The position numbers and the translations under genes were made by a program. From an uncultured virus (IMG/VR IMGVR_UViG_3300031851_003771) (Duplodnaviria > Heunggongvirae > Uroviricota > Caudoviricetes), in IMG/VR virus record IMGVR_UViG_3300031851_003771: 64,000 nucleotides of DNA; one strand, written 5' to 3'. The notes under the pieces are model-generated. The model was not told the DNA's origin. It did no database searches and saw only the letters and a list, made by a program, of their open reading frames with translations. Positions 11,700-60,847 of the stretch are shown one piece after another. Numbering within the stretch: the first letter of the stretch is position 1; the number at the start of each line of letters is the position of its first letter.

Positions 11700-11715
11700 T
11701 TTACTATACTTACCT

Positions 11716-12810
11716 TTATTTAAATTGTGCCGCAAATGGATCAAACTCTGCTCCACATTTCATTGCACATACTTTTAGTTTGCCGTTATCACAACCTTTG
11801 ATATCCCAACTTTGTTGAATACTATCAAATATTCCTGTTTCAAATACTTTTTCTAATCCTTTAGTTGCGTCTAAAAATCCTTTGCCACCTGCTTCATCTA
11901 TATGATTCCATATCTGTTCTATCTTAGGATCTTTATGCCACCATTTGTACATTCGTCCTGCTGTCCAACAACAAGGTAATGCTAGTCCTTCAGCTGTAAT
12001 GTATAAACTATTTTCTTTAGCTACTTTACAGATTATAGGTGCTTGGTCATAATACTTGTCCATTGACCCATACTTTTTTACTAATATATCATACTTTGAT
12101 AATTCTTTATTTTGATATTTTGCATCTGGCTTTTTCAATAATGTTGTTTCTTTACCTTTTCTATTAACTGCTTGGTGTTGTTCTTTCTTTACTGAATTCG
12201 ATGAAATAAATCTACCGGTCTTTTTAGAAGTAAAACTTTCAAAACCAATTTCTTCAGATAATTTTTTAGCTTTTTCTACTTGATGTTGATTATGATCAAA
12301 AATTAAATAATCCCATCTAGCTTTGCCGCCTGCACCACAAAATGCTCTCATTGACTGTTCAACCATTTTCCAGTTTACATTCTGTCTATATAAATGATTT
12401 GTTTCTTCTAGTCCGTCAACACTAAAAATTACATATCCATTATTACCAAATACTTTTGCTAATTGTTTCCACCATTGTGGTTTCTGTGCACCAGCATTTG
12501 TATTCATACTTAAAGACATAGTTGGATTATGTTGTCTAAAATATGCAAATACTTCAAGTGTATCATTGGCAACTATAGGATCTCCCAGGTTACCACACAT
12601 ATACATTTTTTTTAATTGCTTAATAAAACTTGGTTTGAAAATATTCTTACAATCTTGTAGTGTCAGTTCGTTTAGATTAATATGTGGATTGAGATCTCCT
12701 CCATTCTGATTACGGTCACACATAGGACAAGCCGCTTGGCATTTTTGTGTTATTTCCAGATGAATAGTTTTGATATCAGAAATGTTATACATATAATTAT
12801 TTAATTCCAA
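11716..12810 (-). CDS. Radical SAM protein with C-terminal twitch/SPASM domain
   Basis: CQAACPMC, CGNLGDP, FSVDG; C-terminal C...LPCC...CAMKCG. Confidence 0.9.
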   Translation of the reverse strand: MELNNYMYNISDIKTIHLEITQKCQAACPMCDRNQNGGDLNPHINLNELTLQDCKNIFKPSFIKQLKKMYMCGNLGDPIVANDTLEVFAYFRQHNPTMSLSMNTNAGAQKPQWWKQLAKVFGNNGYVIFSVDGLEETNHLYRQNVNWKMVEQSMRAFCGAGGKARWDYLIFDHNQHQVEKAKKLSEEIGFESFTSKKTGRFISSNSVKKEQHQAVNRKGKETTLLKKPDAKYQNKELSKYDILVKKYGSMDKYYDQAPIICKVAKENSLYITAEGLALPCCWTAGRMYKWWHKDPKIEQIWNHIDEAGGKGFLDATKGLEKVFETGIFDSIQQSWDIKGCDNGKLKVCAMKCGAEFDPFAAQFK

Positions 12811-13561
12811 TTTTCATATAACGAGAATACTTGTCTAGTACAAGTTCTCCCTGATACAATGTTTTCTCCATTGCTGTCTGTTCTGAAAAATCCTCAACAG
12901 ATTTAGAACAGTTTATATGTTCATCAAGATCAAAATAATTGTTTGTTTGTAATATTAATATTTTGCCATCGGGTATATTATTGTACCATTTTTTAAAATC
13001 TTCTATATGTTCACAGCTGGTGTTAATAATAGTATCCGGGGAATCTGTTAATTCACAAATCGAACCATCTGATCTATTTACATTATATACGTGTGTTGAA
13101 TAATTTATATCGTGTATATCTTGGGTTGATGATTTAAACTGCCAATCTTTCATTACCCAAGGTTTGTTAAAAGTTTCTGCTATCTTCCAACAACTGTTGT
13201 CTATATCAAAACTTCTAATTTTTTTAATTGTTAAATCTTCTTCAAATAGCATTGTAGCCAATGTGGCATACCAACCCGCACAAAGAAATATAGTGCCTAG
13301 ATCTAAATCTAATTTTTTTAACTCAGTGACTAACCATAATTTACTCTGTATTTGTCCTCTGGCTAGACAGTCGTCAGCAAAACTAGTATCTTCACGCAAT
13401 TTACGATATGCTGTAATTAATTGGCTGTTGGAAAAGGATTCTAATAGTCTAAATAAACTATGTTGATCTCCATCTATATGGAATCTTCTAAGATCTTCAA
13501 ATCTTTTATCATTAGGAAATAATAGTTCATATCTATCTAATATCTCGTGTATTTTCATCAT
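12797..13561 (-). CDS. Putative SAM-dependent methyltransferase
   Basis: Rossmann-like FLCAGWYA, acidic RSFDID, INTSCEH. Confidence 0.65.
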   Translation of the reverse strand: MMKIHEILDRYELLFPNDKRFEDLRRFHIDGDQHSLFRLLESFSNSQLITAYRKLREDTSFADDCLARGQIQSKLWLVTELKKLDLDLGTIFLCAGWYATLATMLFEEDLTIKKIRSFDIDNSCWKIAETFNKPWVMKDWQFKSSTQDIHDINYSTHVYNVNRSDGSICELTDSPDTIINTSCEHIEDFKKWYNNIPDGKILILQTNNYFDLDEHINCSKSVEDFSEQTAMEKTLYQGELVLDKYSRYMKIGIK

Positions 13562-14234
13562 ACTGATCCTTTAGCCAATCGAAATCGTTTATATTGTTTA
13601 GTTTAGCAGGATTATCTTGATACGTCAATCCATAATGCCTGCCAGCGATTGCTCCTGCGATACAGTATTTGCCAAATTCTTTATCTTCGCCTTTTGTACA
13701 CCATATATTTAACCTCTCGTCAGTCTCATTGTCCTTCTGTTTTTCAATAATTTTACTAGATAATTTTGTACATTCTCTAAAGGCACTTTTCCAAGTATTA
13801 AACGGATCTGTGTTGAATCTGGTTGTGTTACTGACTGCAGGCATTGGTTTAAACTTACTTGCTCCGCCTACAGAACTAGTAAAATCAATATTCCAATCAG
13901 TTGCTTTCCTTAAAGTTTGTGTTGGAAAAAGTTTTACTCCTCCGTATCCATATATCAAATTGTTTATTGGATTGCGACAACGCCAGACGTGTATCTTATC
14001 TAGATCCCATTCCGTTGGTTTATATGTAAAATCAAAATGAGAATCTAAGTCAGCATCAGCATCAACCACATAAAACATTTCAGTGTATGCTTGTTGTGAG
14101 CATTGTTGATGAGCATTAAAGATTCCTTTAACACCTTGCACACGTCTTGCCCACGGAAACTTACTTTTTAAAGTGTCAAATGTTTCGTTTGCAAACTTTT
14201 CTTTATAGCTTAAATGAAATATATCGTAGGACAT
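13533..14234 (-). CDS. Glycosyltransferase-like protein (GT-A, DxD)
   Basis: FYVVDADA DxD motif, YGGVKL. Confidence 0.55.
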   Translation of the reverse strand: MSYDIFHLSYKEKFANETFDTLKSKFPWARRVQGVKGIFNAHQQCSQQAYTEMFYVVDADADLDSHFDFTYKPTEWDLDKIHVWRCRNPINNLIYGYGGVKLFPTQTLRKATDWNIDFTSSVGGASKFKPMPAVSNTTRFNTDPFNTWKSAFRECTKLSSKIIEKQKDNETDERLNIWCTKGEDKEFGKYCIAGAIAGRHYGLTYQDNPAKLNNINDFDWLKDQYDENTRDIR

Positions 14235-14821
14235 TAATCACGCGAATCTTCAATTCTATCAATCAACCCAAATTTCATTGCTTCAGTAGGGTTCATAAAA
14301 TTATCACGTTCCATTGCTTCATTAATTGTTTCTAATGCTGTTCCAGTGTGTTTAGCATACAATCCATTTAATGTTGCTTTTGTCTTTTGAATTTCTTTTG
14401 CGTGTATTTGTATGTCAGTTGCTTGTCCTGAAAAGCCACCGCTGGGTTGATGTATCATTATTTTACTATGTGGTAAACTAATTCTTTTACCTTTTGCACC
14501 TGCCATTAGTAATAAAGAACCTGCACTAGCGGCCTGTCCTATACATACTGTTGATATATCTGGTTTTACATATTGCATTGTGTCGTACATTGCTAATCCA
14601 GATGATACAACACCACCAGGACTATTAATATACATAAAGATATCTTTCTTTTGATCAACAGACTCTAAAAATAATAACTGAGCACAAACTACACTTGATA
14701 CTGAATCATTAATCGGTCCGTTAATAAAAATGATACGTTCTTTTAAAAGTCTACTAAAAATATCATAACTTCGTTCTCCTCTTGAAGTTTGATCAATAAC
14801 CATTGGTATTAAATTACTCAT
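14234..14821 (-). CDS. clpP: ATP-dependent Clp protease proteolytic subunit
   Basis: [25 protein letters not shown] (Ser), MIHQP (His), RDNF (Asp); start MSNLIP at 14821. Confidence 0.97.
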
Positions 14822-14845
14822 ATATTTTTCCTTTTTGTATTCTTT

Positions 14846-14873
14846 ATTATAACACAATTTTGTTAAATGTCAA
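14846..14873 (-). promoter_or_regulatory. Sigma70-type promoter upstream of clpP and the radical SAM operon
   Basis: TTGACA-16nt-TATAAT on minus strand. Confidence 0.75.
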
Positions 14874-16350
14874 ATTTAACACCTTGTGCTAATGGTAAAT
14901 CTGATCCATAATTTACAGTGACCGTAGATCTTTTCATATACTGTTTCCAAGCATCAGATCCTGATTCTCTTCCACCACCTGTATCTTTCTCTCCACCAAA
15001 GGCACCACCTATTTCTGCACCAGATGGACCGATGTTGATATTAACTATTCCACAATCAGATCCATTTGCTCCAATAAATCTTTCTGCTTCTTGTAAGTTA
15101 TCAGTAAAAATACAACTGCTTAATCCTTGAGGTACATCATTTTGTATTTTAATTGCTTCGTCTAATGACTCATACCCAATCACATACAAAATAGGAGCGA
15201 ATGTTTCTTGTTGTACTATCGCATCTGGTTTTGTTAATTCAACAACTGCTGGTTTAACATATGTATCTCCTACAACTTCTCCACCGTGTACAATGTGGCC
15301 ATTTGTTTTACAATAAGTCAATACTTCTTGCATTTTATCAATAGCTTGTTTGTTAATCATAGGTCCCATTAAAGTATTCTCACTAAAAGGATCACCTGGT
15401 GTTATTGTAGCATATGCTTTGACTACTTTAGCGACTAAATCTTGTTTAATACTATTATGCACTATCAATCTTCGTAGTGATGTACATCGTTGACCAGACG
15501 TGCCAACAGCACTGAACACTATACTTTTGACTGCTAGTTTTTGATTTGCTTCAGGAGTTACAATCATTGCATTGTTTCCTCCTAACTCCATAATTAGTTT
15601 TCCAAATCTTTTTTGTACTATCGGTGCCAATGATCTACCCATATCACTGCTACCTGTTAAACTTACGACTTTGATACGTGGATCTAGACAAATATTTTCT
15701 GCTTGAGTATTTAGACCCATATGCATTAGAAGAACATCTTTAGCCCAACTTAGACTTGCATCATCACAAGTTTTATCCCATATGGATTTTAACATTAAAG
15801 ATATAAAAGGTGTCTTCGGTGATGGTTTCCATAATACTACATTACCACCCACTGTCGCTATTGCAAAATTCCAACTCCATACTGCGGCTGGGAAATTAAA
15901 TGCACTTACTACTCCGACAGTACCGTACGGATTCCACATCTCTTGCATTCTATGATCTTGTCTTTCACTTGGCATAGTCAATCCATATAACTGTCTCGAC
16001 AATCCAACTGCAAAATCACAGATGTCAATTACTTCTTGTATTTCTCCTAGACTTTCTTGGTATACTTTTCCATTTTCTAAAGTTATCATTTTTGATAAAT
16101 CTTCTTTGGCTTCTCTCACTGCATTACCAAACAACCTTATCATCTCTCCTCTTTTAGGAGCAGGATAATTTTTCCATTGTTCAAATGTCTTCTCTAACGT
16201 AATTAGACTGTGGTCTAAATCGTCATTCCAATTTTCTGAAAATGATCCTAATTGCGATCCATCAATTGGCGTATGGACATCTTTTCCGCTGGTTGTAACT
16301 GTTATATTATATTTTTGTACTAAAGATTCAAATAAAGTTTTATAATTCAT
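14863..16350 (-). CDS. Aldehyde dehydrogenase, ALDH7 / piperideine-6-carboxylate dehydrogenase-like
   Basis: [50 protein letters not shown]. Confidence 0.92.
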
Positions 16351-16372
16351 ATTTTATTATACTATATTATTG

Positions 16373-16681
16373 TTATATGTTCAAGATAAATCTAGCCTCT
16401 TCACTCATCATTTCTGGACCAAATGGTGGATCAAATGTAGTGATGATCATACACTCTTGTACTCCTTCTACAGATTCAGTAGCATATTTGATGTCTTCAA
16501 TAATTTGATCTGCGGCTGGACAAAATGCAGATGTTAATGTGTGTGTAACTGTAACTTTAGGCAACTCTAATAAATCTATATCATAGATTAAACCTAAGTC
16601 ATATATGTTAATTGAAATTTCCGGGTCGTGTACTTCTTTTAAATTTTTAATTATTTCTTCTTTTAACTGCTCTGTTTCCAT
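16373..16681 (-). CDS. DUF59/SufT-type Fe-S cluster assembly protein
   Basis: DPEISINIYDLGLIY, TLTSAFCP. Confidence 0.9.
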   Translation of the reverse strand: METEQLKEEIIKNLKEVHDPEISINIYDLGLIYDIDLLELPKVTVTHTLTSAFCPAADQIIEDIKYATESVEGVQECMIITTFDPPFGPEMMSEEARFILNI

Positions 16682-17250
16682 TAAACAGCCTCTACACGAT
16701 TTACTTCTGGTATGTAATGCCTTAGCATATTCTCAATCCCCATCTTCAAGGTTGCTGTTGAACTCGGGCAACCAGAACAGGCTCCAAACATTTCTAAATA
16801 AACCACACCATTATCAAAACTGTGGAAAATAATATCACCACCATCTTGTGCTACAGCAGGTCTTACACGTTCATCAAGTAGTTGAATTATTTTTCTTTCA
16901 ACATCACTTTTATCACCTGCTTCTAAATCAATATTTTCAACAGACCATTTTGATTCATCTTCGATTAAAAAAGGATCTCCTGTATTATCATAATCTTCAA
17001 TTATTTCTAATATAGGCTGTTTTAGTAATGGCCATTCAACTGATGGGTCTTTTCCAACAGTTATAAAATTGCTACCAAGAAATACGTCATCAACACCGTG
17101 TACTCTAAAAAGTGAATATGCAACAGGAGATTGGTCATTGTCGTAATCTGTTTCTTTTTTAAAAAACTTAGGTGCACCTTCTCCCATTACTGGTCTACTT
17201 GTAACAAACTTAATGGCATTAGGATTTGGGGTTGACTCTATTGTTATCAT
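16681..17250 (-). CDS. nifU: NifU/NfuA family Fe-S carrier
   Basis: TPNPNAIKF N-domain; RPAVAQDGGD, GACSGCPSS. Confidence 0.93.
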   Translation of the reverse strand: MITIESTPNPNAIKFVTSRPVMGEGAPKFFKKETDYDNDQSPVAYSLFRVHGVDDVFLGSNFITVGKDPSVEWPLLKQPILEIIEDYDNTGDPFLIEDESKWSVENIDLEAGDKSDVERKIIQLLDERVRPAVAQDGGDIIFHSFDNGVVYLEMFGACSGCPSSTATLKMGIENMLRHYIPEVNRVEAV

Positions 17251-17262
17251 TTTATTCTCCTA

Positions 17263-17577
17263 TTATTCTGCTTCAACGGTAACTTGTAAAGGGTGACCAG
17301 CGGATCTAGCCATTGTTGTACACTCAATTGATTTTTGTTCTGCAATCTCATATGAATACGTTCCAACGACCGCTTTGCCTTTATCGTGAATTAATCTAGT
17401 AAGTTCATCAGCAGTATCTGGTGTATGATAAAATATATCAATCAGTAGCTTACTAACAAAATCCATAGGTGTAAAATCATCATTAATAAAAACAACGTGA
17501 TACTTTCCAGGTATTTTAATTTGATCTTTAGTCTGGGCTACTTGATTTGATTTCGGGCTTGATTGTTCTTTTGACAT
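17263..17577 (-). CDS. clpS: Clp protease adaptor ClpS
   Basis: NDDFTPMDFV, IHDKGKAVVG, EIAEQK, GHPL. Confidence 0.93.
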   Translation of the reverse strand: MSKEQSSPKSNQVAQTKDQIKIPGKYHVVFINDDFTPMDFVSKLLIDIFYHTPDTADELTRLIHDKGKAVVGTYSYEIAEQKSIECTTMARSAGHPLQVTVEAE

Positions 17578-17580
17578 ATA

Positions 17581-18096
17581 CTATTTTCTTTCAGTAGTTA
17601 CGTCTGGTAAGACGTAATTCTTTTGTTCTGTTTTATCTTGGTTATCTTGGTTATCATTTTTCTTTTTACCAACTACACTTTTAAATTCTACTGGATATGG
17701 TCTTCCTTTAGCTTGTTTCTTTATATCCTGTAACTGTTTATGTAATTGTTTTGTATAGTATACACTAATACTGCGTGGATGTCTATCGTTATTAACCAAG
17801 TTAGTTAGCCAATTTTTATTCTTATTTCTTTTTATAACCCATACATTGATGCGTTCTTGTCCTTCTGGAACGTGGTAGCTAATTAAAAAGAACTTTCCTG
17901 TAGGAAATTCAGTCTGATGTGGCCAACCATACATACTTTCTAATGAAAGATGTAAACATATAACAGTAAGCACAGCAATAGTTGAAGAAAATATTCTTGT
18001 GAATAATTTTAACTTACTGACGTATGCTAATACTAATACCAAGAAACTAACCAATATTGCTACTCCAATAACAACTAAAGTGTGTGCTAAAATCAT
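17581..18096 (-). CDS. Membrane protein with two N-terminal TM segments
   Basis: Two hydrophobic stretches then a soluble domain; coupled to the upstream gene. Confidence 0.7.
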   Translation of the reverse strand: MILAHTLVVIGVAILVSFLVLVLAYVSKLKLFTRIFSSTIAVLTVICLHLSLESMYGWPHQTEFPTGKFFLISYHVPEGQERINVWVIKRNKNKNWLTNLVNNDRHPRSISVYYTKQLHKQLQDIKKQAKGRPYPVEFKSVVGKKKNDNQDNQDKTEQKNYVLPDVTTERK

Positions 18097-18740
18097 TATG
18101 GTGTTACTCCATTAGTTTTTGATTTTTCTAAAACTAAAGGATAGTCCAGCTGATTGGAACCAATTACAGCACCTTCACTATCTATTGTAAATCTTAAAAA
18201 AGTTACTTCATCCCCAGTGCCTGTGAGTATCTTTTTTCCTGTCCATACTAATTTGTAAGGATTCAACTTTTCAATTTTTACTGATACTTCCATCGTTTGG
18301 CTAACAACTGCATTGGTTTCTCCAACTCTTCCGTTGGCTTTAGAAAACCAGTGTGCATTCACTATGTATTCTCCGGGAACTATACCTCTAATTGTTACGT
18401 GTTCTTCATTGAAATCTGTCGTGTAAGATCCTGCATCAGTTATAACTATATCATTAGAATAACCTAAGTCATCTCTATCTAGATTTATAAGTCCTTTATC
18501 TCTTTGTCTAAAGTAGACTATATTTTTTTGAGGATCCATAACATATAAGTCTATATCATCTTTGCTTTCTTTTGGCCAGCTCATTGTTATTATAAATTCT
18601 GCTTTCACAATAACATCACCTTTTTTTGTTATAGGATTTATTAATAGGAAAGCAACTATGAATAACATAGCCAACCCGATTGTTATATTAAACAAAAGGT
18701 CTATGAAAGCAACACTAGATTTATATTTTTCTCGTCTCAT
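18096..18740 (-). CDS. ExbD/MotB-like single-TM protein with YfaP/DUF2135-like domain
   Basis: AFIDLLF TM with conserved Asp; DDIDLYVMDP, LDRDD, NEEHV, GEYIVNAH. Confidence 0.6.
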   Translation of the reverse strand: MRREKYKSSVAFIDLLFNITIGLAMLFIVAFLLINPITKKGDVIVKAEFIITMSWPKESKDDIDLYVMDPQKNIVYFRQRDKGLINLDRDDLGYSNDIVITDAGSYTTDFNEEHVTIRGIVPGEYIVNAHWFSKANGRVGETNAVVSQTMEVSVKIEKLNPYKLVWTGKKILTGTGDEVTFLRFTIDSEGAVIGSNQLDYPLVLEKSKTNGVTP

Positions 18741-19254
18741 TGGCTTTTAACTTCACATAATTGTCAAAATGTACTTCTAATCTAAAGTATTCAAGTTTAA
18801 GAACTAATCCGGCTGTTAGACCAACTAATGTTGTGTAAAGTGCTGTACTCATACCTAAACTCATATTCTTTAAACTCTGTTGTACACTCTCAGTATCATT
18901 AACGTTTAAGTCAGAGAACACACCATATAACATAAGAATGAATCCACTAACTGTACCAATTAGACCTAAAGTTAAACATATCTCACTAGCAAACCAACCA
19001 AACTCATATCTACTTTTCAAAGAAGGATCTAAAGGCAAATTTTGTCTTTGTATTTTTGACAATATCCAGGATTGCCGTCCGCAATATAATGACATCACTG
19101 TAAACAATGATAAAATTATAAAACTTATTTTAGTTTGATCCGCTGTCCATATTGCTTCAAATACGCCTAGTGTGTAACATATAAAGGTGATTAGTATCAA
19201 AGAACAAAAGAACCACCACCATTCAAGAAAAGTTTTATTATTATTGTGTTGCAT
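18721..19254 (-). CDS. MotA/TolQ/ExbB proton-channel family protein
   Basis: LGLIGTVSG and GMSTALYTTLVGL signature helices. Confidence 0.8.
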   Translation of the reverse strand: MQHNNNKTFLEWWWFFCSLILITFICYTLGVFEAIWTADQTKISFIILSLFTVMSLYCGRQSWILSKIQRQNLPLDPSLKSRYEFGWFASEICLTLGLIGTVSGFILMLYGVFSDLNVNDTESVQQSLKNMSLGMSTALYTTLVGLTAGLVLKLEYFRLEVHFDNYVKLKANETRKI

Positions 19255-19259
19255 ACAGT

Positions 19260-19267
19260 TATTTATA
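19260..19267 (-). promoter_or_regulatory. T4-type late promoter TATAAATA
   Basis: TATAAATA 5 nt before the ATG at 19254. Confidence 0.65.
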
Positions 19268-19296
19268 AAAAAAAGGTAATGTATGTAATTTAAAAT

Positions 19297-19322
19297 AATA
19301 CTGGGAGTTTCCTCCCAGTATT
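19297..19322 (-). terminator. Intrinsic terminator after hsp20
   Basis: AATACTGGGAG-GAAA-CTCCCAGTATT perfect 11-bp stem followed by ATTTT. Confidence 0.8.
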
Positions 19323-19335
19323 GATAAAGTATTTG

Positions 19336-19779
19336 TTATTTTACTGCAATATTTCTAGCTTTTTTAGATTCTGGAATAATTCTTTCCAAAGAGATTCTAA
19401 GTAAGCCGTCTTTTAACTCTGCACCTTTTACTTCTACATCATCTGCAATAGTAAATGACTTTGAGAAATATCTTTTCGAGATTCCTCTGTGTAATACACC
19501 ATCATTTTCTTTATTTTCATCTGTGTTCTTTACAGATTTTACTGATAAAATATTATCAGCATAGTCCACAGTGATATCTTCTTTTGAGAAACCAGCAAGT
19601 GCAAGTTCTACATCATAAGTGTATTCACCAGTCTTTACAATGTTGTAAGGTGGGAAGTTTACAGTTGGTGCTCTAAAAACATCATCTTCGAACATTCTTT
19701 CGAAATGATCAAACACGTTGTCAAAGCCAATAGTTACTGGACGTAACTGATTAAAAATAGATAGATTGTTTCTTGTCAT
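19336..19779 (-). CDS. Small heat shock protein Hsp20 (IbpA-like)
   Basis: FPPYNIVK, LALAGF, LHRGISKR, AELKDGLL. Confidence 0.95.
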   Translation of the reverse strand: MTRNNLSIFNQLRPVTIGFDNVFDHFERMFEDDVFRAPTVNFPPYNIVKTGEYTYDVELALAGFSKEDITVDYADNILSVKSVKNTDENKENDGVLHRGISKRYFSKSFTIADDVEVKGAELKDGLLRISLERIIPESKKARNIAVK

Positions 19780-19852
19780 AATTGTACTCCTTTGTTAAGC
19801 AAGTTAATATAAATGTAGATCCTATCTAAAGCAATCTACACACTTATTTATA
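19780..19852 (-). promoter_or_regulatory. Late promoter plus ROSE-like thermometer leader of hsp20
   Basis: TATAAATA, hairpin TGTAGATTGCT..AGGATCTACA, then CTTGCTT-AAC-AAAGGAG pairing with the SD. Confidence 0.65.
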
Positions 19853-19875
19853 CAGCAATTACTGTACAAATTCTT

Positions 19876-21759
19876 TTAGTCTTTTTTTACTTCCTCAAAA
19901 TCAGCATCAACTACATCATCGTCTTTCTTGTCTTTTGATTCTGATGTTTCTTCTTGTTGTTGATTTTTATAAACAGCTTCTCCAAGTTTCATACTAGCTT
20001 CAGCAAGTTGTTTGATACTTTCTTGCATCTGTGTAATATCATCGGATTTCAAAGATTCCGAAACTTTTATTTTTGAAGTTTCAATTGCTGATCTTTCTTC
20101 TTCAGATAACTTGCTACCGTGTTCGGACATCTGTTTATCTATTGAGTGTATCATAGTTTCAGCTTGGTTTTTAGTTTCAACTAACTCTTTTTTCTTTTGA
20201 TCTTCTTCTTTGTTAGCTTCTGCTTCTTTGACCATTCTTTCTATTTCACTATCATCAAGTCCACCTGATGCCTGGATTGTGATCTTTTGTTCTTTTCCAG
20301 TACCTTTGTCTTTTGCTGAAACATTTAAAATACCATTTGCATCTACGTCAAACGATACTTCAATTTGCGGAACACCTCTTGGTGCTGGTGCAACTCCTTC
20401 AAGATTAAAATTACCCAATAACTTATTATCATCTGCCATTTGTCTTTCACCTTGCACAACTTTAATTGTAACAGATGGTTGATTGTCATCAGCAGTAGAA
20501 AACACCTGACTTTTCTTTGTCGGTATTGTTGTGTTCTTTTCTATCAGTTTAGTTGCTACACCTCCTAGTGTTTCAATACCCAACGACAGAGGAGTTACAT
20601 CAAGTAAAAGTACATCTTTTACATCGCCTTGTAGTACTCCGCCTTGAATAGCGGCACCCAATGCCACCACTTCATCTGGATTAACACCTTGGTGTGGATC
20701 TTTGCCAAAGAATGTTTTCACTGTTTCATTTACTTTAGGCATTCTAGTCATACCACCAACTAAAATTACTTCTGTAATATCAGATTGTGATACACCGGCA
20801 TCTTTTAATGCTGTCTTACAAGGAGTAATTGTTCTTTGTACTAAAGATTCTACCAATCCTTCTAATTTTGCTCTTGTTATTTTAACATTTAAATGTTTTG
20901 GTCCAGTTTTATCTGCTGTGATAAAAGGTAAACTGATATCAGTTTGTGTTGTGCTTGATAATTCAATCTTGGCTTTCTCTGCCGCTTCTCTCACACGTTG
21001 AACTGCTAACTTGTCGTTAGTTAAATCAACTCCACTTTCTTTCTTAAATTCAGAAATGATATAATCTGTGATTGTAGCATCAAAGTCTTCACCACCCAGT
21101 GTTGTGTCACCGTTTGTGGATTTAACTTCAAACACGCCATCGCCTATTTCTAGTATAGATACGTCAAATGTACCACCACCTAAGTCGTACACAGCAACCA
21201 TACCTGATTTTTTCTTGTCAAGTCCGTATGCCAATGCCGCCGCAGTTGGTTCATTTATAATTCTTTCCACTTCCAATCCAGCAATCTTACCAGCGTCTTT
21301 GGTCGCTTGCCTTTGTGAGTCATTAAAGTACGCAGGAACTGTTATTACCGCTTTAGTTACTTCTTGACCCAAGTATTTCTCGGCCGTTTCCTTCATCTTA
21401 ACTAATACTTTAGCTGATATTTGACTCGGTGAGTATTTTTCTCCATTTGTTTCTACCCAAGCATCGCCTTTATCAGACTTAATTACTTTATAGGGTAATG
21501 TCGTGATGTCTTTTTGTATTTCGTTACTATCAAATTGTCTACCAATTAAACGTTTTGATGCAAAAATAGTATTTTCTGGATTTGTTACTGCTTGTCTTTT
21601 AGCAGGCATTCCTACTAATGTTTCTTGATCAGAGATCGATACTACACTTGGTGTAGTTCTTGCTCCTTCTGTATTTTCAATGACTTTAGGATCTGATCCT
21701 TCCATTACAGAAACACAAGAATTTGTTGTACCTAAGTCAATTCCAATTATTTTACTCAT
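19876..21759 (-). CDS. dnaK: Chaperone DnaK (Hsp70)
   Basis: [31 protein letters not shown]-terminal DADFEEV; start MSKII after SD GGAGG. Confidence 0.98.
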
Positions 21760-21835
21760 ACTGCTTTCCTCCTTTATATTAAGCAAGGGTTTGTCAACAG
21801 CCTATACATATAGCACTGTGTCTTAATATTTATTG
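21760..21835 (-). promoter_or_regulatory. ROSE-like thermometer leader of dnaK
   Basis: ATAAATA, hairpin ACAGTGCTAT-ATGT-ATAGGCTGT, then CCTTGCTT..AAAGGAGG. Confidence 0.55.
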
Positions 21836-21872
21836 TTGTATATTATATAATAACGATTATGTAAATTGCGAC

Positions 21873-22100
21873 CTATATAGGATGTATTAATTTTATTTTT
21901 TTGCCAATTTCTGTTTTAGTTGGCAAATCGCCATATTCTTCAACAAAAACTTTTAGAACTTGTTTATAAAATATAGTACTATCGTGGTCGACTTTTTGGT
22001 TTATACTAGATAAAGATAGATTGTCTGCATTTTGTAACACTTGTAGTGCTATGCTTGATTCAATTTGCAGTTGTCTTAGTTTTAAACTATCAATTTCCAT
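21873..22100 (-). CDS. Hypothetical protein
   Basis: ORF overlapping the upstream gene end in an operon. Confidence 0.6.
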   Translation of the reverse strand: MEIDSLKLRQLQIESSIALQVLQNADNLSLSSINQKVDHDSTIFYKQVLKVFVEEYGDLPTKTEIGKKIKLIHPI

Positions 22101-22641
22101 TTATAAATTCCATATTTAAAAAAGCATCAGCACCATTTCCAACTAACTCTGGCCAATCCTTTGGAGCATTTTTATCAGCATTATCAGATATGTACTTATA
22201 ACATAGAAAGTCAATGTTATGTTCTTTACAGAATTTTGCATAAGCATATGATTCCATATCAACTAGATCTGTTTTTATTTTAGGATCAGACATAACAAAG
22301 TTATCTCCTGTTCCACAGGAATATCCATCATCATCAAAACTGATTGTACTATCGTCTTCATACGGTGTTTGTCCAAATTCAAAACCAAGTCCGGTTACAT
22401 CCATATCTCGCTGTTTGAATACTGTTACTGGAACTAGTCCAGAAAGTCCTTTGTTTAATGTTCCTGCTGTTCCATAATTAATGATTAACTTTGGATTGTA
22501 TTCGTGATATGCCTTGACAATAGATATAGAAGCATTAATTTTTCCTACACCAGTGTATACAATATTCCAGTCTGGCATCAAATTCTTGGGTAATTCATTT
22601 TCTAAAGCAACTAATATTACACAATCTTTTTTATCAACCAT
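22090..22641 (-). CDS. 5'-methylthioadenosine/SAH nucleosidase family protein
   Basis: TGVGKINA, NYGTAG, GTGDNFV, VDMES, KYISDNAD. Confidence 0.85.
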   Translation of the reverse strand: MVDKKDCVILVALENELPKNLMPDWNIVYTGVGKINASISIVKAYHEYNPKLIINYGTAGTLNKGLSGLVPVTVFKQRDMDVTGLGFEFGQTPYEDDSTISFDDDGYSCGTGDNFVMSDPKIKTDLVDMESYAYAKFCKEHNIDFLCYKYISDNADKNAPKDWPELVGNGADAFLNMEFINGN

Positions 22642-23149
22642 ATTGTAATACCGATCTTACAGGTGACGTTAACTGTGTTGAACCGTTTAACAATGATAAT
22701 TCAATTACAAACATTGACAGCACAACGTTGCCTCCGGCTTTATGTATTAAGTCTTCTGCACACTTTATTGTTCCGCCTGTAGCTAACAGATCATCAACTA
22801 GCACCACTCTCTTGCCTTTGATATCTCTTGCCTTTTGTATTGCTAAAGATGAACTGCCGTATTCGAGTGTATATGTTTGTTCTATTAATTTACCAGGTAG
22901 TTTATTTGGTTTCCTAATCATCAATGAACCTACTCCTAATTGTTGGCTAACCAACGTTGAGAATAAAAATCCTCTTGCATCAATTCCTGCTATATAATCA
23001 GGTTGATAATCTTTTGCTATTGCAACAAGATTGTTTTTGACAATTTTTAGTGCTTCATAATTTTCTAATATAGGACTAATATCTTTAAAAACTATTCCTT
23101 TAACAGGGAAGTCTTTTATGCTATCTACAAAGTTATAGAGATTTACCAT
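22634..23149 (-). CDS. apt: Adenine phosphoribosyltransferase
   Basis: DFPVKGIVFKDI, DARGF, LEYG, VDDLLATGGT. Confidence 0.93.
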   Translation of the reverse strand: MVNLYNFVDSIKDFPVKGIVFKDISPILENYEALKIVKNNLVAIAKDYQPDYIAGIDARGFLFSTLVSQQLGVGSLMIRKPNKLPGKLIEQTYTLEYGSSSLAIQKARDIKGKRVVLVDDLLATGGTIKCAEDLIHKAGGNVVLSMFVIELSLLNGSTQLTSPVRSVLQYG

Positions 23150-23166
23150 TGTACTTCTTTCATTAG

Positions 23167-23243
23167 TGGCGGGAGTGAAGGGACTCGAACCCTCGGCCTA
23201 CCGCGTGACAGGCGGTCGCTCTAACCAACTGAGCTACACCCCC
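23167..23243 (-). tRNA. tRNA-Asp(GTC)
   Basis: Cloverleaf, TAGCTCAGTTGGTTAGAGC, anticodon GTC, GGTTCGAGTCC, encoded CCA. Confidence 0.96.
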
Positions 23244-23253
23244 AAGGTGTATT

Positions 23254-23329
23254 TGGTGGGTAGTAAAGGACTCGAACCTTTGACCCCCTCGGTGTAAACG
23301 AGATGCTCTACCAACTGAGCTAACCACCC
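23254..23329 (-). tRNA. tRNA-Val(TAC)
   Basis: Cloverleaf, anticodon TAC, GGTTCGAGTCC, encoded CCA. Confidence 0.96.
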
Positions 23330-23523
23330 TACTTTTTACTACGGTGGTGATCTTCCAAAGCAAATTGAAAAGCAACTGTCATATCACTTGCTAGATTTGG
23401 ATATCTCTCAACCATCATCTTGTAGAACAAATCTCTTTGACTTTTGTCCATTCTAGCAATTACTTCGGTTAAGTCGTCTGCATTCTTAATTATATTATCT
23501 ATTGCCATTGCGAAGTTCTCCAC
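23329..23523 (-). CDS. Hypothetical protein
   Basis: Short ORF directly upstream of the tRNAs. Confidence 0.55.
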   Translation of the reverse strand: MENFAMAIDNIIKNADDLTEVIARMDKSQRDLFYKMMVERYPNLASDMTVAFQFALEDHHRSKK

Positions 23524-23587
23524 TGTTAATAATTATAATTATTATATGGTAAATTTATAATTTTGTAAAGAGATTTATTAAGAATAA

Positions 23588-23616
23588 TTTACTAGCTGTA
23601 TAAAACAGCTAGTAAA
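23588..23616 (-). terminator. Hairpin terminator
   Basis: TTTACTAGCTGT / ACAGCTAGTAAA 12-bp inverted repeat. Confidence 0.7.
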
Positions 23617-23627
23617 AATATTAAGTG

Positions 23628-23927
23628 TTATACTGTTGCTGTTGACATTGTTATAACAATGCCATTTTCAGTTGCGTGTGCATCTGAGGCTTCTCTGAAT
23701 GCTTGGTAGTCTGCGTGGTTACTAACTTCATTAGCTGAATCTTCTGAATCGTAAGTAACAACTGTTGTTGTCACTAGACCATCTGTATCAGTATTGATCG
23801 ATTGTAATTTACCTGCATCTTGTGATGCCTGTAACACGGCTTCCATTGCTGTTCTGATTTCTCCGCCTGCATATATACTTGTTTCTGCATTTGGTAGAGT
23901 AACAGTAATCGTAATTTGATGTGCCAT
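23628..23927 (-). CDS. Acidic hypothetical protein
   Basis: SD AGGAG, own TATAAATA promoter and terminator. Confidence 0.75.
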   Translation of the reverse strand: MAHQITITVTLPNAETSIYAGGEIRTAMEAVLQASQDAGKLQSINTDTDGLVTTTVVTYDSEDSANEVSNHADYQAFREASDAHATENGIVITMSTATV

Positions 23928-24028
23928 TTTTATGCTCCTATATATAGTTTTTTGTATCTTTATTGTATTTGCAAATAATACAACTATATTTATACTAAAT
24001 TTTAAAATATAAGAATTATACGGTGTTT

Positions 24029-24400
24029 TTATCTCTTTTTGTTACCGGTTTTTTTCTTAGTTTTAAAGGTTTGTTTTAAAGGATCAAAGTCTCCAAATGG
24101 TACGCCAGTTGTCTGAGAAGCTTTAATCTGTCTTCTATATTCATTTTTAATAGCTTCTTTACGTTTTACACGTTTTTTTTCACTTGGCTTCTGGTAATAC
24201 CTTCTGTCTTTGATCTCTTGTAGTACATTGTCATTAACTAGCTTACGTTTAAGTATACGCCAGGCTTTCATAATGTCATTGTCATACACTGTAACTTCCA
24301 TACCTTTTGGTTGCTCTTTTTTAACAAATTTCTTCTTGGGCTGAAAGCTGTCAAAATTGTTGTTTCTGGGCTTGAAGTTGTTTCTTGGTTTATTTTCCAT
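24029..24400 (-). CDS. rpsU: 30S ribosomal protein bS21 with terminal extensions
   Basis: VTVYDNDIMKAWRILKRK...RRYYQKPSEKKR. Confidence 0.88.
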   Translation of the reverse strand: MENKPRNNFKPRNNNFDSFQPKKKFVKKEQPKGMEVTVYDNDIMKAWRILKRKLVNDNVLQEIKDRRYYQKPSEKKRVKRKEAIKNEYRRQIKASQTTGVPFGDFDPLKQTFKTKKKTGNKKR

Positions 24401-24956
24401 TTTTTTCTCTTTTGTTATCTTGTATTGTAACAGGTTTCTTTAAAATTGCAAGTATTTTATTTCCTAAACGTTTAGGTGGATTATCATATGCAAAACTACT
24501 TATGTTGGAAACGAATTTTTTAAACTGTTCATCGCAGAATTCTTTCAATGCATTTTCTCTACCACGCATTTTCATTACTAGCTTCACTTTATCACCATCA
24601 TCAAGTATTTCCTGTATTTTTTTGGTTTTAACTAAAATGTCGCCGATGTCAGTACGTGGGCTGAATTGTATTTCTTTTACTTCAACTGCATTCTCCCTGT
24701 TCCTTTTGTCCTGCATTTTCTGTTTCTTCTTCTTTTCATACAGATACTTGCCGTGATCCATTATTCTACATATAGGTGGATTTACTTTAGTATTAATACA
24801 AACAAGATCTTCTCCAGATGATTTTGCCATTTGTATTGCATCATCTCTTCTTAAAATGTCATTCATATCTTCTCCAACTAATCTCACTTCCATTGATTTA
24901 ATATTGTAATTGATTAATGGTTTTTCAGATCTTTTATTATGAAAAGGTTTTTTCAT
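24390..24956 (-). CDS. infC: Translation initiation factor IF-3
   Basis: INYNIKSMEVRLVGE, PPICRIMDHGKYLYE, VKEIQF, GDKVK, RGRE. Confidence 0.92.
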   Translation of the reverse strand: MKKPFHNKRSEKPLINYNIKSMEVRLVGEDMNDILRRDDAIQMAKSSGEDLVCINTKVNPPICRIMDHGKYLYEKKKKQKMQDKRNRENAVEVKEIQFSPRTDIGDILVKTKKIQEILDDGDKVKLVMKMRGRENALKEFCDEQFKKFVSNISSFAYDNPPKRLGNKILAILKKPVTIQDNKREKNGK

Positions 24957-24959
24957 CTA

Positions 24960-26183
24960 TTATGAGGACATCTCTTGGTCATATACCAGTAAAGGTTCTT
25001 TGTTAAAGAACGTATCTTTACTAATAACAATTTTTTTAACTCCTTGACTAGCATAGTATGGTAAATCATATTGTGTATTTAATATTCCATTTTCAAGCAC
25101 TGTTTTTAAACCACGGGCACCAAGTTTCTTTAAAGAAGCTTGTTCCACTATGTAATCAACTGCATCTGATGAAAACTCAAGTTCTATGTTTTCCATTTTA
25201 AATAATCTTTTTGACTGTTCAATTAAACTATTTTTTACATTCAACAATATGGATTTTAAATCTTCGTCAGTTAATTCTTTGCAACCAACTATTACTGGTA
25301 ATCTACCTACTAACTCTGGTATTAATCCATATTTGATTAAATCATCTGGTTCTACTTTTGCAAGATCTTGTATTGTTTTTATTAAATCTCCTCCAAATCC
25401 CATTCTGCTTCCTTTAGTAGATCTACTTGCCATAGTTTTTTCTAAGCCAACAAATGCACCTCCGCAAATAAACAAAATATTAGATGTATCTAATTCAATC
25501 ATTTCTTGGCCAGGATGTTTCCTTCCGCCTTGTGGTGGAACACGTACTAATGTCCCTTCGATGATTTTTAACAATGCTTGTTGTACACCTTCACCTGATA
25601 CATCTCTCGTTATTGAAGTATTTTCAGACTTACGTGATTTTTTATCTATTTCGTCAATGTATATAATTCCACGTTGTGCTTTTTCAACATCAAAGTCTGC
25701 TTGTGATAACAATCTAGTAATTACATTTTCAACGTCATCTCCTACGTAACCACTTTCAGTTAGTGTTGTTGCATCTGCTATAGCAAAAGGCACGTCAACG
25801 TACTCGGCAACTTTCTTTGCCATTAGAGTTTTACCTGAACCGGACGGTCCTAATAATAATATATTAGATTTCTCTATTTCTGAGTTCTCTTCATTAATAT
25901 TATTAATTACTCTTTTGTAATGATTATATACTGCTACACTTAAAACTTTCTTTGCTTGTTCTTGTCCTATCACGTGTTGTTGTAGGAACTCAAATAGTTT
26001 CCGCGGATCAGGTGCTGTTATATCACTTGACTTTTTATCTTGTTTAGTCTCGCTTAAAATCGAATGACACAAATCTACACATTCATCACAGATAAAATTG
26101 TCTTTTGGACCAGCAATTAATTTCTGTGCATCAGCACGAGGTTTTTCACAAAACGAGCATTTCATTTCTATTGTATTACTCAT
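24960..26183 (-). CDS. clpX: ClpX ATPase
   Basis: Zn finger CSFC...[37 protein letters not shown]. Confidence 0.97.
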
Positions 26184-26382
26184 TTATTCTTTTTCAACCA
26201 TTTTGATATCCATTCTTTATTCTGTGAATATTGATTAGTGCTTCTTGGATCGTATTGTAACGATGCTTTTACGCCTGGGTGTATTCCGTCCATATTAATA
26301 TTTTTCTGTTGTTCTTTTAATTTTACATTAAGATTGTCTTGAATGTCAATAGTCTTTTTTTCTAATTTGTTATCACTATCAG

Positions 26383-33689: not shown

Positions 33690-33960
33690 AAAGTGCAACT
33701 ATTCTGTTGCCAGGTCAGTTGCCAACCCCGTTAGCCTAACTAATTAGGCCGCAAGTGCTAGATTTTCATCTGCATTTGTAGTTTTGTCGCGTTAACCGAG
33801 CTCCCTCCGGACAACTCCATTTTTCTTTACATTCCGGTCGATCCTAGTTCACCCCCATCATAAGCACACCATTAGTAGTATGCTTAATGTGTTTATGGTG
33901 GAGGTGCTCGGTACTGCCCCGAGGTCCCTAAAACTTATTCCAAAAACATCAACGTTGTAA
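33690..33960 (-). ncRNA. ssrA: Permuted two-piece tmRNA, tag (A)ADENLALAA
   Basis: Acceptor piece ends GGGGCAGTACCGAGCACCTCCACCA (33896); coding piece starts GGGGGTGAACTAGGATCGAC (33856); tag ORF 33744-33773. Confidence 0.9.
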
Positions 33961-33965
33961 TAGTA

Positions 33966-33993
33966 ATTATACAGTGATATAGTATTTTGTCAA
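33966..33993 (-). promoter_or_regulatory. Sigma70 promoter for tmRNA
   Basis: TTGACA-16-TATAAT. Confidence 0.8.
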
Positions 33994-33995
33994 GT

Positions 33996-34922
33996 CTATA
34001 TTAAATCTAGAGTTTTCAATGTGCTAAAAGTGGCTATACCCGCTGTCATTAAGTATGCCATACAAGGATCTTTTGCTAAATTTGTAAGTAATCCAGCTAA
34101 TGCCCATTGTATTAATTTCTCAATGGTATTTCCAAGATATTTCAAATCATCTTTTATCAGGTCAATTAATAATTTTGCTAATCCTATAACACCCATTGCG
34201 AATGCCAGTATACCAGCAACCTGTAAAACTTTTCCAAGTATCTCTCCCAATATTGATCCAGCTTTCATAATTCCTCCAAGTGCATCTTCAATAAACGCAC
34301 AAGGACCAGATGATACGTTTGGTATTGATCCTAGTGTTGTTGCCAATTGACTAAATGATGACAACGTACTCATATAAGTTGATAGACCGGGAACTACTAC
34401 TCCTCCTGGGTAACTTGGTGTTGTCGGTATAGCTACACTGTTTCCGTATGTACCAGTTTGTCCTAAGGTTGTCCAAGGACTTGCTCCTGCACCGAGTTCT
34501 GAGACACACATTCCACTTTGCCTATTACTTAGATATGTTATATCTTTAAGAGCACCTTCTACGAAATTTATATCGTTAATTTCTGCATCTGTTAAAATTC
34601 TTGTTGTTTGACCTGGACCTAACAAACTTCCATCAACTGCTACACGATCAGCATAATTGGTTGCGTTCCATCCATCTGGTAATCCTGCTTTTTGTTGGTT
34701 TAATATTTGTGCAATTTTTTGTATATTGTCATCGTGTGGATTTTTAAATCCAGCATATGCCTTACAAGATCTTCCAAACGGATCTGTGTGATCAACAAGT
34801 TCAAGAGCACCACTTTGAATTAATTTGGTTTGTGTCTCACTTACCTGAGTTGTCTTGGGTACAAGATCATCTGGAAAGTTTAAGTTATCGTAGTATGTTC
34901 CTGATATTATTTTATTTGCCAT
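33996..34922 (-). CDS. Hypothetical protein, probably baseplate/spike-associated
   Basis: Co-transcribed with PAAR from a late promoter. Confidence 0.6.
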   Translation of the reverse strand: MANKIISGTYYDNLNFPDDLVPKTTQVSETQTKLIQSGALELVDHTDPFGRSCKAYAGFKNPHDDNIQKIAQILNQQKAGLPDGWNATNYADRVAVDGSLLGPGQTTRILTDAEINDINFVEGALKDITYLSNRQSGMCVSELGAGASPWTTLGQTGTYGNSVAIPTTPSYPGGVVVPGLSTYMSTLSSFSQLATTLGSIPNVSSGPCAFIEDALGGIMKAGSILGEILGKVLQVAGILAFAMGVIGLAKLLIDLIKDDLKYLGNTIEKLIQWALAGLLTNLAKDPCMAYLMTAGIATFSTLKTLDLI

Positions 34923-60002: not shown

Positions 60003-60044
60003 ACAGGAATCAACAGAAAAATATTAGAAACTGTTGATTCCTGT
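60003..60044. terminator. 14-bp perfect inverted repeat, probable terminator of the micro-ORF operon
   Basis: ACAGGAATCAACAG-N14-CTGTTGATTCCTGT. Confidence 0.55.
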
Positions 60045-60105: not shown

Positions 60106-60213
60106 TTATATCCCTCCACTGTATTTCATAACATTTAGAATCACAACACCTGCAAGTATTGACATCATAAATCCTATAACAACAACGGTTGTAATCATAT
60201 CTTTGAAATGCAT
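60106..60213 (-). CDS. 35-aa single-TM peptide
   Basis: TAATG coupling, SD GAGG, hydrophobic core. Confidence 0.6.
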   Translation of the reverse strand: MHFKDMITTVVVIGFMMSILAGVVILNVMKYSGGI

Positions 60214-60389
60214 TATTTGTCCTCTTTGTTGTTCAGCATCAACTTCTTTGCTTCTTCGTGAAGACCCATTACCGCCAATTGGTGAGCCGCTCTGGCTGTG
60301 CCAATAGCTTCACAGGTTGTAATCATTCTTGCGAACATCTTGTTTACTGATTCACAAAATGAACAGTAGTATAGTGTTATTGTACTCAT
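60213..60389 (-). CDS. 58-aa hypothetical protein
   Basis: MSTITLYYCSFCES...GTARAAHQLAVMGLHEEAKKLML; ATGA coupling. Confidence 0.65.
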   Translation of the reverse strand: MSTITLYYCSFCESVNKMFARMITTCEAIGTARAAHQLAVMGLHEEAKKLMLNNKEDK

Positions 60390-60556
60390 TTGTTAACGCC
60401 TTTTCTATCTTTGTTAGTTATTCTTGGCAATATGTGGTAGTAAGCATACTCCCATTCTTTACCGTACTCTGTTTTGGCCCACTGTAGCATCTGAGCTTCA
60501 GAAACACTTTTGCTTCTAAAGAAATCTGCAAGATGGGTCCATATGAAATTTGTCAT
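60386..60556 (-). CDS. 56-aa hypothetical protein
   Basis: SD AGGAG/AGGA; ...WAKTEYGKEWEYAY... Confidence 0.7.
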   Translation of the reverse strand: MTNFIWTHLADFFRSKSVSEAQMLQWAKTEYGKEWEYAYYHILPRITNKDRKGVNK

Positions 60557-60574
60557 ATCCTATCTCCTATATAA

Positions 60575-60745
60575 TTTAGATGCTTAAGGAAAGCAATACC
60601 CTGGTCTTTTCCAGTGTCAGTAGTCTTTGCTACCGTCAGTCTGTTGTAAGGCGTAGCCACCGCCCTGGTCTTTCCCTAGTGCCACTCTTTTTTTCTGAGC
60701 CGAGGTCGCTCTTGAATAAAAAAAACTGTTTTCTTATTCAATCTT
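60575..60745 (-). ncRNA. Candidate structured RNA / 5' leader with three NAAAGA-loop hairpins
   Basis: Locally GC-rich; repeats CACTAGGGAAAGACCAGGG / CACTGGAAAAGACCAGGG; GTAG-CAAAGA-CTAC; TATAAATA at 60745-60752. Confidence 0.6.
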
Positions 60746-60847
60746 ATTTATAAAATATACTATGAAATTGTGTCGTAGGTCGACATATTTTTTTGCAAGG
60801 CTGTCTTGCTTATTTGTAATGGATCGGATTGTTTATGATTCGATTAA

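Follow-up and report, generated by a model that had tools for sequence, protein, structure and literature searches.

Related RNA elements

At the CIN1 loci of Alphaproteobacteria (cuckoo/CcsR RNAs and the DUF1127 protein CcaF1), repeated hairpin RNAs with a pyrimidine anti-Shine-Dalgarno (anti-SD) loop occur together with DUF1127 genes, and a bacterial DUF1127 protein binds RNA (PMC8034643). The phage leader RNA reported here shares the gene neighbourhood, the repeated hairpins and the anti-SD loop, but it has purine-rich NAWAGA loops where cuckoo/CcsR (ar14) has CCUCCUCCC loops, and CCTCCTCC was found in 0 of 144 homologous leaders. Unlike cuckoo, it carries a single anti-SD loop at its own SD and two pseudoknots, is phage-borne, and lacks an accompanying DUF1127 gene in the copy analyzed here. 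A second likeness is the S. meliloti duf1127-1 gene, which is controlled through its 5′ leader, where a C-rich tract pairs with a ribosome-binding site (10.1101/2025.01.31.635925). That control is uORF-dependent transcription attenuation, whereas the phage RNA is modular and has no conserved uORF inside. Because the kinase PhoR is another partner through which DUF1127 proteins act (PMC12648545), they need not be RNA ligands.

Fremin et al. 2023 mention T4 gene 32-type pseudoknot operators and report 8,495 IMG/VR candidate RNAs, one of which, DNAVirus_2114, lies within 25 bp upstream of 28 DUF1127 genes (PMC10690425). The present family may be among these candidates. DNAVirus_2114 may nevertheless be another motif, since DUF1127 directly follows the RNA in just 1 of our 81 pattern-selected rows (L135). 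Apart from that possible overlap, our literature search on DUF1127/DUF3563, phage, jumbo, leader and pseudoknot topics found no description of this RNA.

By analogy, the RNA would work most like a phage translational operator. The T4 gene 32 operator and other pseudoknot operators also place a leader pseudoknot upstream of an SD for protein-controlled translation; they differ in the genes controlled and in having an unstructured tract in place of repeated structured units, and the adjacency to ssb is incidental here. The boxB of lambda and P22 likewise has a purine-rich loop on a short stem, but the loops here have 6 nucleotides, come in one to four copies, and stand without boxA or, in the window cassette, an N-like protein. 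CsrB/RsmY sponges have GGA in each loop, whereas 182 of 395 units here contain no GGA, the closing G included. Type III antitoxins (ToxI/TenpI/CptI) are tandem pseudoknot repeats with a terminator and an endoribonuclease toxin gene; here the repeats are hairpins, 134 of 136 cores have no U tract, and the ORFs (35–58 aa) have no Pfam match at the cut-off. The covariance models of preQ1-I, SAM-II and SAM-V gave no match to the element.

The locus in a marine jumbo phage

The window, that is, the whole 64,000-nucleotide stretch analyzed (IMG/VR record IMGVR_UViG_3300031851_003771), is part of a marine jumbo phage. The site is flanked by genes for ssb (PHROG 1192), UvsX, terminase and a virion protein, and the minus strand carries nearly all long genes of the window. 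Among cultured phages, the ssb proteins most similar to that of the window come from Sinorhizobium phage Phosso (63%), PA5oct-like phages and Agrobacterium phage Atu_ph07. The window carries an alphaproteobacterial permuted tmRNA and three tRNAs; the tmRNA, together with the downstream cargo of relatives (described below), indicates that the host is probably an alphaproteobacterium. Elsewhere in the window, some ten long ORFs follow one another over positions 1-14300, and CxxxCxxC motifs in several of them suggest radical SAM proteins; positions 14200-26200 and 33692-34008 hold, besides the tmRNA and the tRNAs, genes that we take, by their appearance, to be host-like genes of proteostasis and metabolism (ClpP, ClpS, ClpX, DnaK, a small heat-shock protein, NifU-like, IF3 and S21).

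The element lies between a promoter-like box and three overlapping microprotein genes; the locus comprises the following features:

60795-60809, no strand: candidate DNA operator, a GCAAG-N5-CTTGC palindrome on the upstream side of the promoter
60745-60752, minus strand: late-promoter-like box TATAAATA
60741-60563, minus strand: leader RNA element
60712-60741, minus strand: A/U-rich 5′ hairpin, whose sequence varies freely among relatives
60683-60711, minus strand: PK0, optional H-type pseudoknot; stem GAGC/GCUC (hairpin 60711-60697, GAGC/GCTC in DNA), loop CUC pairing with GAG beyond an A-rich linker
60665-60683, minus strand: unit 1, GGC-A-stem with GAAAGA loop (hairpin 60679-60665, 1-nt bulge in the 5′ arm)
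60638-60664, minus strand: PK1, H-type pseudoknot; hairpin GGCG/CGCC (60664-60650) plus a loop-to-3′ pairing
60619-60637, minus strand: unit 2, 19 nt, GAC-stem with CAAAGA loop (hairpin 60634-60619)
60601-60618, minus strand: unit 3 (last), GAC-A-stem with AAAAGA loop (hairpin 60614-60601), abutting the 3′ hairpin
60579-60600, minus strand: 3′ hairpin, TGCTT/AAGCA stem (60595-60581) and SD-complementary pyrimidine loop (UCCU)
60563-60578, minus strand: A-rich linker and SD AGGAGA (60568-60563), which would provide the second helix of an SD-hiding pseudoknot
60386-60556, minus strand: ORF1, 56-aa microprotein, predicted all-helical, A-K-T-E-Y family (PHROG 8471)
60213-60389, minus strand: ORF2, 58-aa microprotein, predicted helical, R-A-A family; its start overlaps the ORF1 stop
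60106-60213, minus strand: ORF3, 35-aa hydrophobic peptide without Pfam match; its start overlaps the ORF2 stop
60004-60043, minus strand: candidate transcript end, a 13-bp perfect hairpin shortly before the ssb promoter

A first-pass annotation made from the letters alone had described an unidentified structured RNA here, with hairpins and two near-identical direct repeats (60599-60616 and 60663-60681); all its listed features, the repeats included, are present, and all belong to the minus strand. This strand of the element folds with z = −3.0 (0 of 200 shuffles were as stable), versus z = −1.0 only for the plus strand over a slightly different span. The GC-rich character seen against an AT-rich background is confirmed by 50.4% GC in the core versus 33.6% in the window. 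The element holds three stem-closed G-NAAAGA-C units, and two or more such units arose in 0 of 5,000 element shuffles, a test whose motif was defined from the element itself and occurs in the same loose form six more times on the minus strand of the window. Two open frames overlap the element, one of 35 codons starting with GTG and one of 57 codons on the plus strand. A relative that is otherwise near-identical (L305) has a precise 19-nt unit deletion that would shift either frame, which fits the claim that the segment is non-coding. A search of Rfam 15 (cmscan) gave no match at the gathering score, and at E up to 10 gave only a 14-bit plus-strand snoRNA chance match in the element. Beyond the earlier list, we find the hairpin 60664-60650, two covarying H-type pseudoknots and the anti-SD character of the last loop. 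The element is a real, conserved, folded RNA that is uncatalogued in Rfam.

Homologous leaders and their distribution

The first relatives came from ORF searches. A 22-nt pattern from the 3′ hairpin matched at least 120 stretches in viral contigs; these matches and four earlier loci gave 81 distinct rows, with L105 dropped as chance. To guard against circularity, 160 loci were fetched by ORF1 alignment alone (the best 80 of 249 viral and the best 80 of 501 metagenomic matches), of which one had no called start and 103 were distinct. The RNA stood directly ahead of the SD in 100 of these 103 loci, 70 with the exact 22-nt pattern and 30 as variants judged by eye. The other three (L226, L310 and L315) had only the promoter, one hairpin and the SD; with L099, they make four cassettes that have the proteins without the RNA. 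Both collections were pooled into 144 distinct homologous leaders, 136 of which were scored as full leaders.

A 21-nt pattern of the 3′ module gave four matches in 185,579 prokaryotic genomes, three being the same microprotein cassette within marine genome bins and one a chance match inside a gene; no bacterial chromosomal copy was found by this pattern. Cassette contigs L221, L223 and L224 are binned into Marinimicrobia and Flavobacteriales genome bins and are probably phage DNA in those bins. The covariance model R2, run on 10 records, found exactly one strong copy in each of six partial phage genomes and no strong copy in two other partial genomes, Phosso or Atu_ph07. Weak R2 matches in L077, L105, L222 and L389 were not counted as members; those in L077 and L222 fall over coding regions. 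A two-repeat pattern scan of viral contigs was also set aside (13 stretches, of which the 9 looked at resembled coding repeats). Comparison of the region with cultured phages (blastn) gave only four chance matches at E 0.9; the region had no match among plasmids, and an ORF1 relative had none among cultured phages (tblastn).

The closest cultured relatives by ssb, Phosso and Atu_ph07, have neither the RNA nor ORF2, and the rhizobial jumbo phage records L387 (Phosso), L388 and L389 (Atu_ph07) have stand-alone DUF1127 genes without the leader RNA. At 79 of 80 ssb loci, many with short upstream flanks, the element was absent from the corresponding position, the sole exception being a locus identical to the window (L001). 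Therefore, the element is not an ssb regulator. Other inserts occupy the cassette slot near ssb in some relatives, and a different conserved hairpin (GAACC ... GGTTC arms) lies in the same slot, upstream of the ssb promoter, in eight of them (L027, L037, L049, L050, L051, L056, L058 and L062). The ssb leader itself (59920-59860, minus strand) contains AGGC(A/T) as a short tandem repeat, placed after the ssb promoter (59983-59955) and before the SD; three to six copies occur within 90 nt of the start in 65 of 73 ssb relatives, and by analogy with T4 gene 32 they are a candidate ssb autoregulatory operator.

Modular architecture of the RNA

Comparison of the leaders shows the RNA as a string of independent modules, the last of which invariably stands directly ahead of the first gene's SD. 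From 5′ to 3′, the modules and their flanks are promoter, 5′ hairpin, optional PK0, unit 1, PK1, further units, 3′ hairpin, A/C-rich linker and SD, with linkers of only 3–4 nt between modules. Most members have a 5′-terminal hairpin of free sequence after the promoter. The four upstream stems, scored over 21 sequences chosen for like geometry, had 94.3% of cells paired and 12 of 21 pairs compensatory, counts that relatedness inflates; 0 of 500 shuffles were as high, and slid controls reached at most 47% paired. RNAalifold on a MAFFT alignment with mixed-length stems recovered the structure only in part. The earlier suggestion of a conserved structured RNA heading a micro-ORF operon is supported by these homologous leaders and by the covariation of their stems.

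The repeat hairpins are 16–21 nt long and follow one grammar, GAC-(purine)-stem-loop, with loops NAWAGA, CAAAG or GGAAGU. Among 395 units there are 74 distinct stem pairs. The unit stems contain 55 G-U versus 4 A-C pairs, which supports an RNA on the minus strand. GAC-stem-NAWAGA units occur one to four times per leader (one in 8 leaders, two in 34, three in 89 and four in 13; some one-unit rows are truncated or parser misses) and, from the aligned leaders, are gained and lost precisely. Unit 2 is precisely absent in L098, L305 and L306 and tandemly duplicated in L106; the L305 core differs from that of the window by the 19-nt loss of unit 2 and one base. Unit 1 was scored absent by the parser in 6 of 136 leaders and is clearly absent by eye in L132, L147 and L175.

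The two pseudoknots are likewise dispensable. PK0 is present in 40 of 136 full leaders; in its alignment (A5, 18 variants), 96.9% of cells are paired and 3 of 9 pairs are compensatory, two of these being pseudoknot-helix pairs. The L236 group has no PK1, and where PK1 is present its loops differ greatly in sequence; in alignment A6, made of the 35 of 65 PK1 variants with similar length, 93.5% of cells are paired and 7 of 9 pairs are compensatory, including 4 of 4 in the pseudoknot helix. The crossing helices of both pseudoknots are weaker in the window copy than in most, the second helix of PK1 being weak. The last unit was found in 134 of 136 full leaders. As PK0, PK1 and unit 1 are each lost somewhere, the near-constant core consists of the last unit, the 3′ hairpin and the SD.

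The 3′ hairpin and the Shine-Dalgarno sequence

No part of the RNA is better conserved than the 3′ hairpin, whose four counted stem pairs are invariant in alignment A10; a variant class with another stem covaries, as judged by eye. Its loop keeps CCU in all 49 rows of alignment A7, most of them pattern-selected. The SD contains AGGAG in 121 of 141 leaders, and the linker between loop and SD is 7–23 nt long with 49% A and 2% G (141 leaders). The retained CCU and the length and low G content of the linker correspond to the geometry of an H-type pseudoknot; thus, we infer that the UCCU loop pairs with AGGA of the SD as a third pseudoknot of this type. No compensatory change between the 3′ loop and the SD was found among the leaders, in which loop and SD alike hardly vary; the A opposite the last loop U is missing from 17 of 141 SDs, and eight leaders have the loop changed to CCCU without a change in the SD.

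Nested folding, in a model without pseudoknots, gave the 3′ hairpin a probability above one half in only 47% of 125 leaders. In the nested minimum-energy fold of the window copy, the pyrimidine tract pairs with unit 1 instead, almost with certainty in the model, and the SD is freed. A general switch between unit 1 and the anti-SD tract was rejected because this pairing is favoured in only 19 of 125 leaders, does not covary, and involves a dispensable unit.

Putative promoter and transcript boundaries

The box TATAAATA (60752-60745) resembles a T4-type late promoter. In 136 of 144 leaders, TAAATA precedes the 3′ hairpin at a distance of 45–172 nt, and the window as a whole is depleted of it (58 found versus 124 expected). 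A box similar to the palindrome GCAAG-N5-CTTGC occurs in 16 of 137 promoter regions, and its function as an operator is putative. A different box, TAGGNCAG-N5-CTGNNCTA, or its half-site is found near the promoter of 83 of 137 leaders (for example, L098, L099 and L135) versus 5 of 1,375 background windows, a pattern derived from the same loci in which it was counted. It sits just upstream of the promoter in 51 leaders and otherwise downstream, and looks like a candidate DNA operator of some regulator; the window palindrome differs from it. The 13-bp hairpin that closes the cassette was not listed by the terminator scan, and its role as a transcript end is putative.

The microprotein cassette and its cargo

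The cassette (about 0.8 kb, with an operon of about 0.7 kb) consists of the element, three overlapping ORFs (56, 58 and 35 aa) and the closing hairpin, and sits between a virion gene and ssb. ORF1 and ORF2 are predicted to be helical with moderate confidence (pLDDT 72–73), and their profiles are unrelated to each other. For ORF1, a fold search gave no usable match (best Z 4.8), nor did an Atlas search, which assigned ORF2 to unnamed viral clusters with rather high confidence. The ORF1 family forms 211 clusters at 50% identity, and none of the sampled members has a functional name. ORF3-like peptides follow the cassettes of many relatives.

The gene census covered 104 leaders with at least 900 nt downstream. 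The ORF1 family was found in 102 of them, partly by selection, and the ORF2 family in all 104. DUF1127 was present in 68 of these relatives: DUF1127 alone occurred in 67 cassettes, DUF3563 alone in 28, both in one and neither in eight, the Pfam identity having been checked on 13 examples, of which 12 were over the cut-off. In the cassettes of relatives (L098-L384), 96 of the 104 thus encode DUF1127 or DUF3563; the two take the same operon slot, almost never together, and this near-exclusive swap suggests an interchangeable function, a shared job. The window cassette is one of the eight with neither; neither DUF1127 nor DUF3563 was found anywhere in the 64-kb window, though its copy keeps the full RNA, as do the seven other cassettes. 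Our literature search found no paper on DUF3563. The downstream cargo in relatives includes an azurin-family copper protein of the pseudoazurin type in 28 loci, alternative oxidase in 4, DoxX in 5 and a weak COX4 match in 9, and it points to redox and energy.

Presence in RNA libraries

Part of the stretch was found in 20 runs from 14 studies; 14 of the runs are on record as RNA. The evidence from RNA runs consists of contigs, which indicate presence in RNA libraries and are not proof of transcription, of a single transcript, or of strand or level. One contig from the four RNA runs examined is identical to the window over 60616-60081, that is, from the last unit through all three ORFs. Summed contig depth was highest or near highest over the leader in two of the four RNA runs, a sum that includes relatives and cannot rank parts. 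Cover in the RNA runs, to which this comparison was confined, was slight or nil in the bins that separate the cassette from ssb, an observation that we do not count as evidence.

Proposed mechanism and alternatives

The best reading of these data, which we put forward with reserve, is a modular translational operator with an SD-hiding pseudoknot, tuned by the binding of protein to the repeats. As a cis-acting 5′ leader, the RNA would gate a translationally coupled microprotein operon of marine jumbo phages: pairing of the UCCU loop with AGGA would keep translation low, a repeat-binding protein, for which the candidates are a cassette product (ORF1, ORF2, DUF1127 or DUF3563) and a host RNA-binding protein, would act on the units, and the number of units would tune the response to it. 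Since the genes overlap, one gate could set the dose of all microproteins. A protein-tuned operator is suggested by the conserved loops and linkers on free stems, the variable copy number, the fixed position relative to the SD and the overlapping genes; the loops and GAC linkers keep their sequence and the stems do not, as expected of protein-recognition sites, and conserved structure lies directly upstream of the SD, as in translational operators. Counting against an operator, the loop-SD pairing shows no covariation, nested folding often disfavours the 3′ hairpin, 8 of 104 cassettes without DUF1127 or DUF3563 keep the RNA, four cassettes have the proteins without it, neither ORF1 nor ORF2 is rich in arginine, and DUF1127 proteins also act through PhoR. 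Among the three options that the first-pass annotation had offered, a multi-site protein-binding leader, a riboswitch or an sRNA, the first fits best, with the protein binding putative.

The free-sequence 5′-terminal hairpin that follows the promoter in most members, the short linkers, and the additive, dispensable modules would also suit a nuclease shield, in which packed hairpins and pseudoknots block 5′-end-dependent or 5′-to-3′ decay (RNase E, RNase J) and give a long-lived microprotein message. Alphaproteobacteria do have RNase J. We consider a shield improbable; a pure barrier needs neither conserved loop and linker sequences nor an anti-SD loop held at a set spacing from the SD. Sponges typically carry a varying number of repeated loops, and the leader might instead be cut off or terminated to act in trans, either sequestering a host RNA-binding protein or targeting host mRNAs as an anti-SD sRNA of the cuckoo type. 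The anti-SD 3′ loop and the contig depth over the leader would agree with this, as would the co-transcription of cuckoo RNAs with DUF1127 genes (PMC8034643). Such a role is nevertheless rather unlikely: CCUCCUCC was found in 0 of 144 leaders, a U5 tract is absent from 134 of 136 cores, the element is single copy, every traced member lies directly before an SD, and the window-identical contig joins the last unit to all three ORFs, though as a contig it does not prove a single transcript.

The preQ1-I, SAM-II and SAM-V riboswitches are H-type pseudoknots with A-rich linkers adjoining the SD, an architecture like the present one, and the cargo (pseudoazurin-type copper protein, alternative oxidase and the weak COX4 match) could suit a switch in which a pseudoknot binds a metabolite or ion and the 3′ hairpin serves as expression platform. 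Against this option of the first-pass annotation stands the finding that the RNA can do without PK0, without PK1 or without unit 1; PK0 is in the minority of leaders counted above, PK1 is absent from one group and has divergent loops, no Rfam riboswitch matched even to E 10, and the 21-nt pattern found no bacterial chromosomal copy. Thus, we regard a riboswitch as quite unlikely. The same annotation had compared the loops to boxB, in which a purine-rich loop sits on a short stem. The comparison stands as an analogy of loop shape, but a nut/boxB-like or put-like antitermination signal for the late transcript is highly improbable: the boxA consensus YGCTCTT occurs on the RNA strand in 0 of 144 leaders, the window cassette has no arginine-rich N-like product (ORF1 has 3 Arg in 56 residues, ORF2 2 in 58), U5 occurs in only 2 of 136 cores, leaving no terminator-like U tract in the others, and the operon is only about 0.7 kb.

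Implications

The RNA family is uncatalogued and widespread in marine jumbo phages, with at least 120 viral pattern matches, and through it DUF1127 and DUF3563 microproteins are connected with an RNA control element. Its members form a natural deletion series, in which the unit number runs from one to four, either pseudoknot may be missing, and some cassettes lack the RNA altogether; therefore, the mechanism of the proposed translational operator is testable by synthetic reporters without phage culture. A more far-reaching version, which we hold to be unlikely as a whole, is a phage-specific tunable RNA rheostat, in which a small RNA-binding protein of a new kind would recognise a recombination-varied array of GAC hairpins, and DUF1127 and DUF3563 would be its exchangeable partners. 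Its binding would open the SD-hiding pseudoknot and so set the amounts of the microproteins and the respiratory cargo, which late in infection would readjust the redox or phosphate signalling of abundant marine Alphaproteobacteria.
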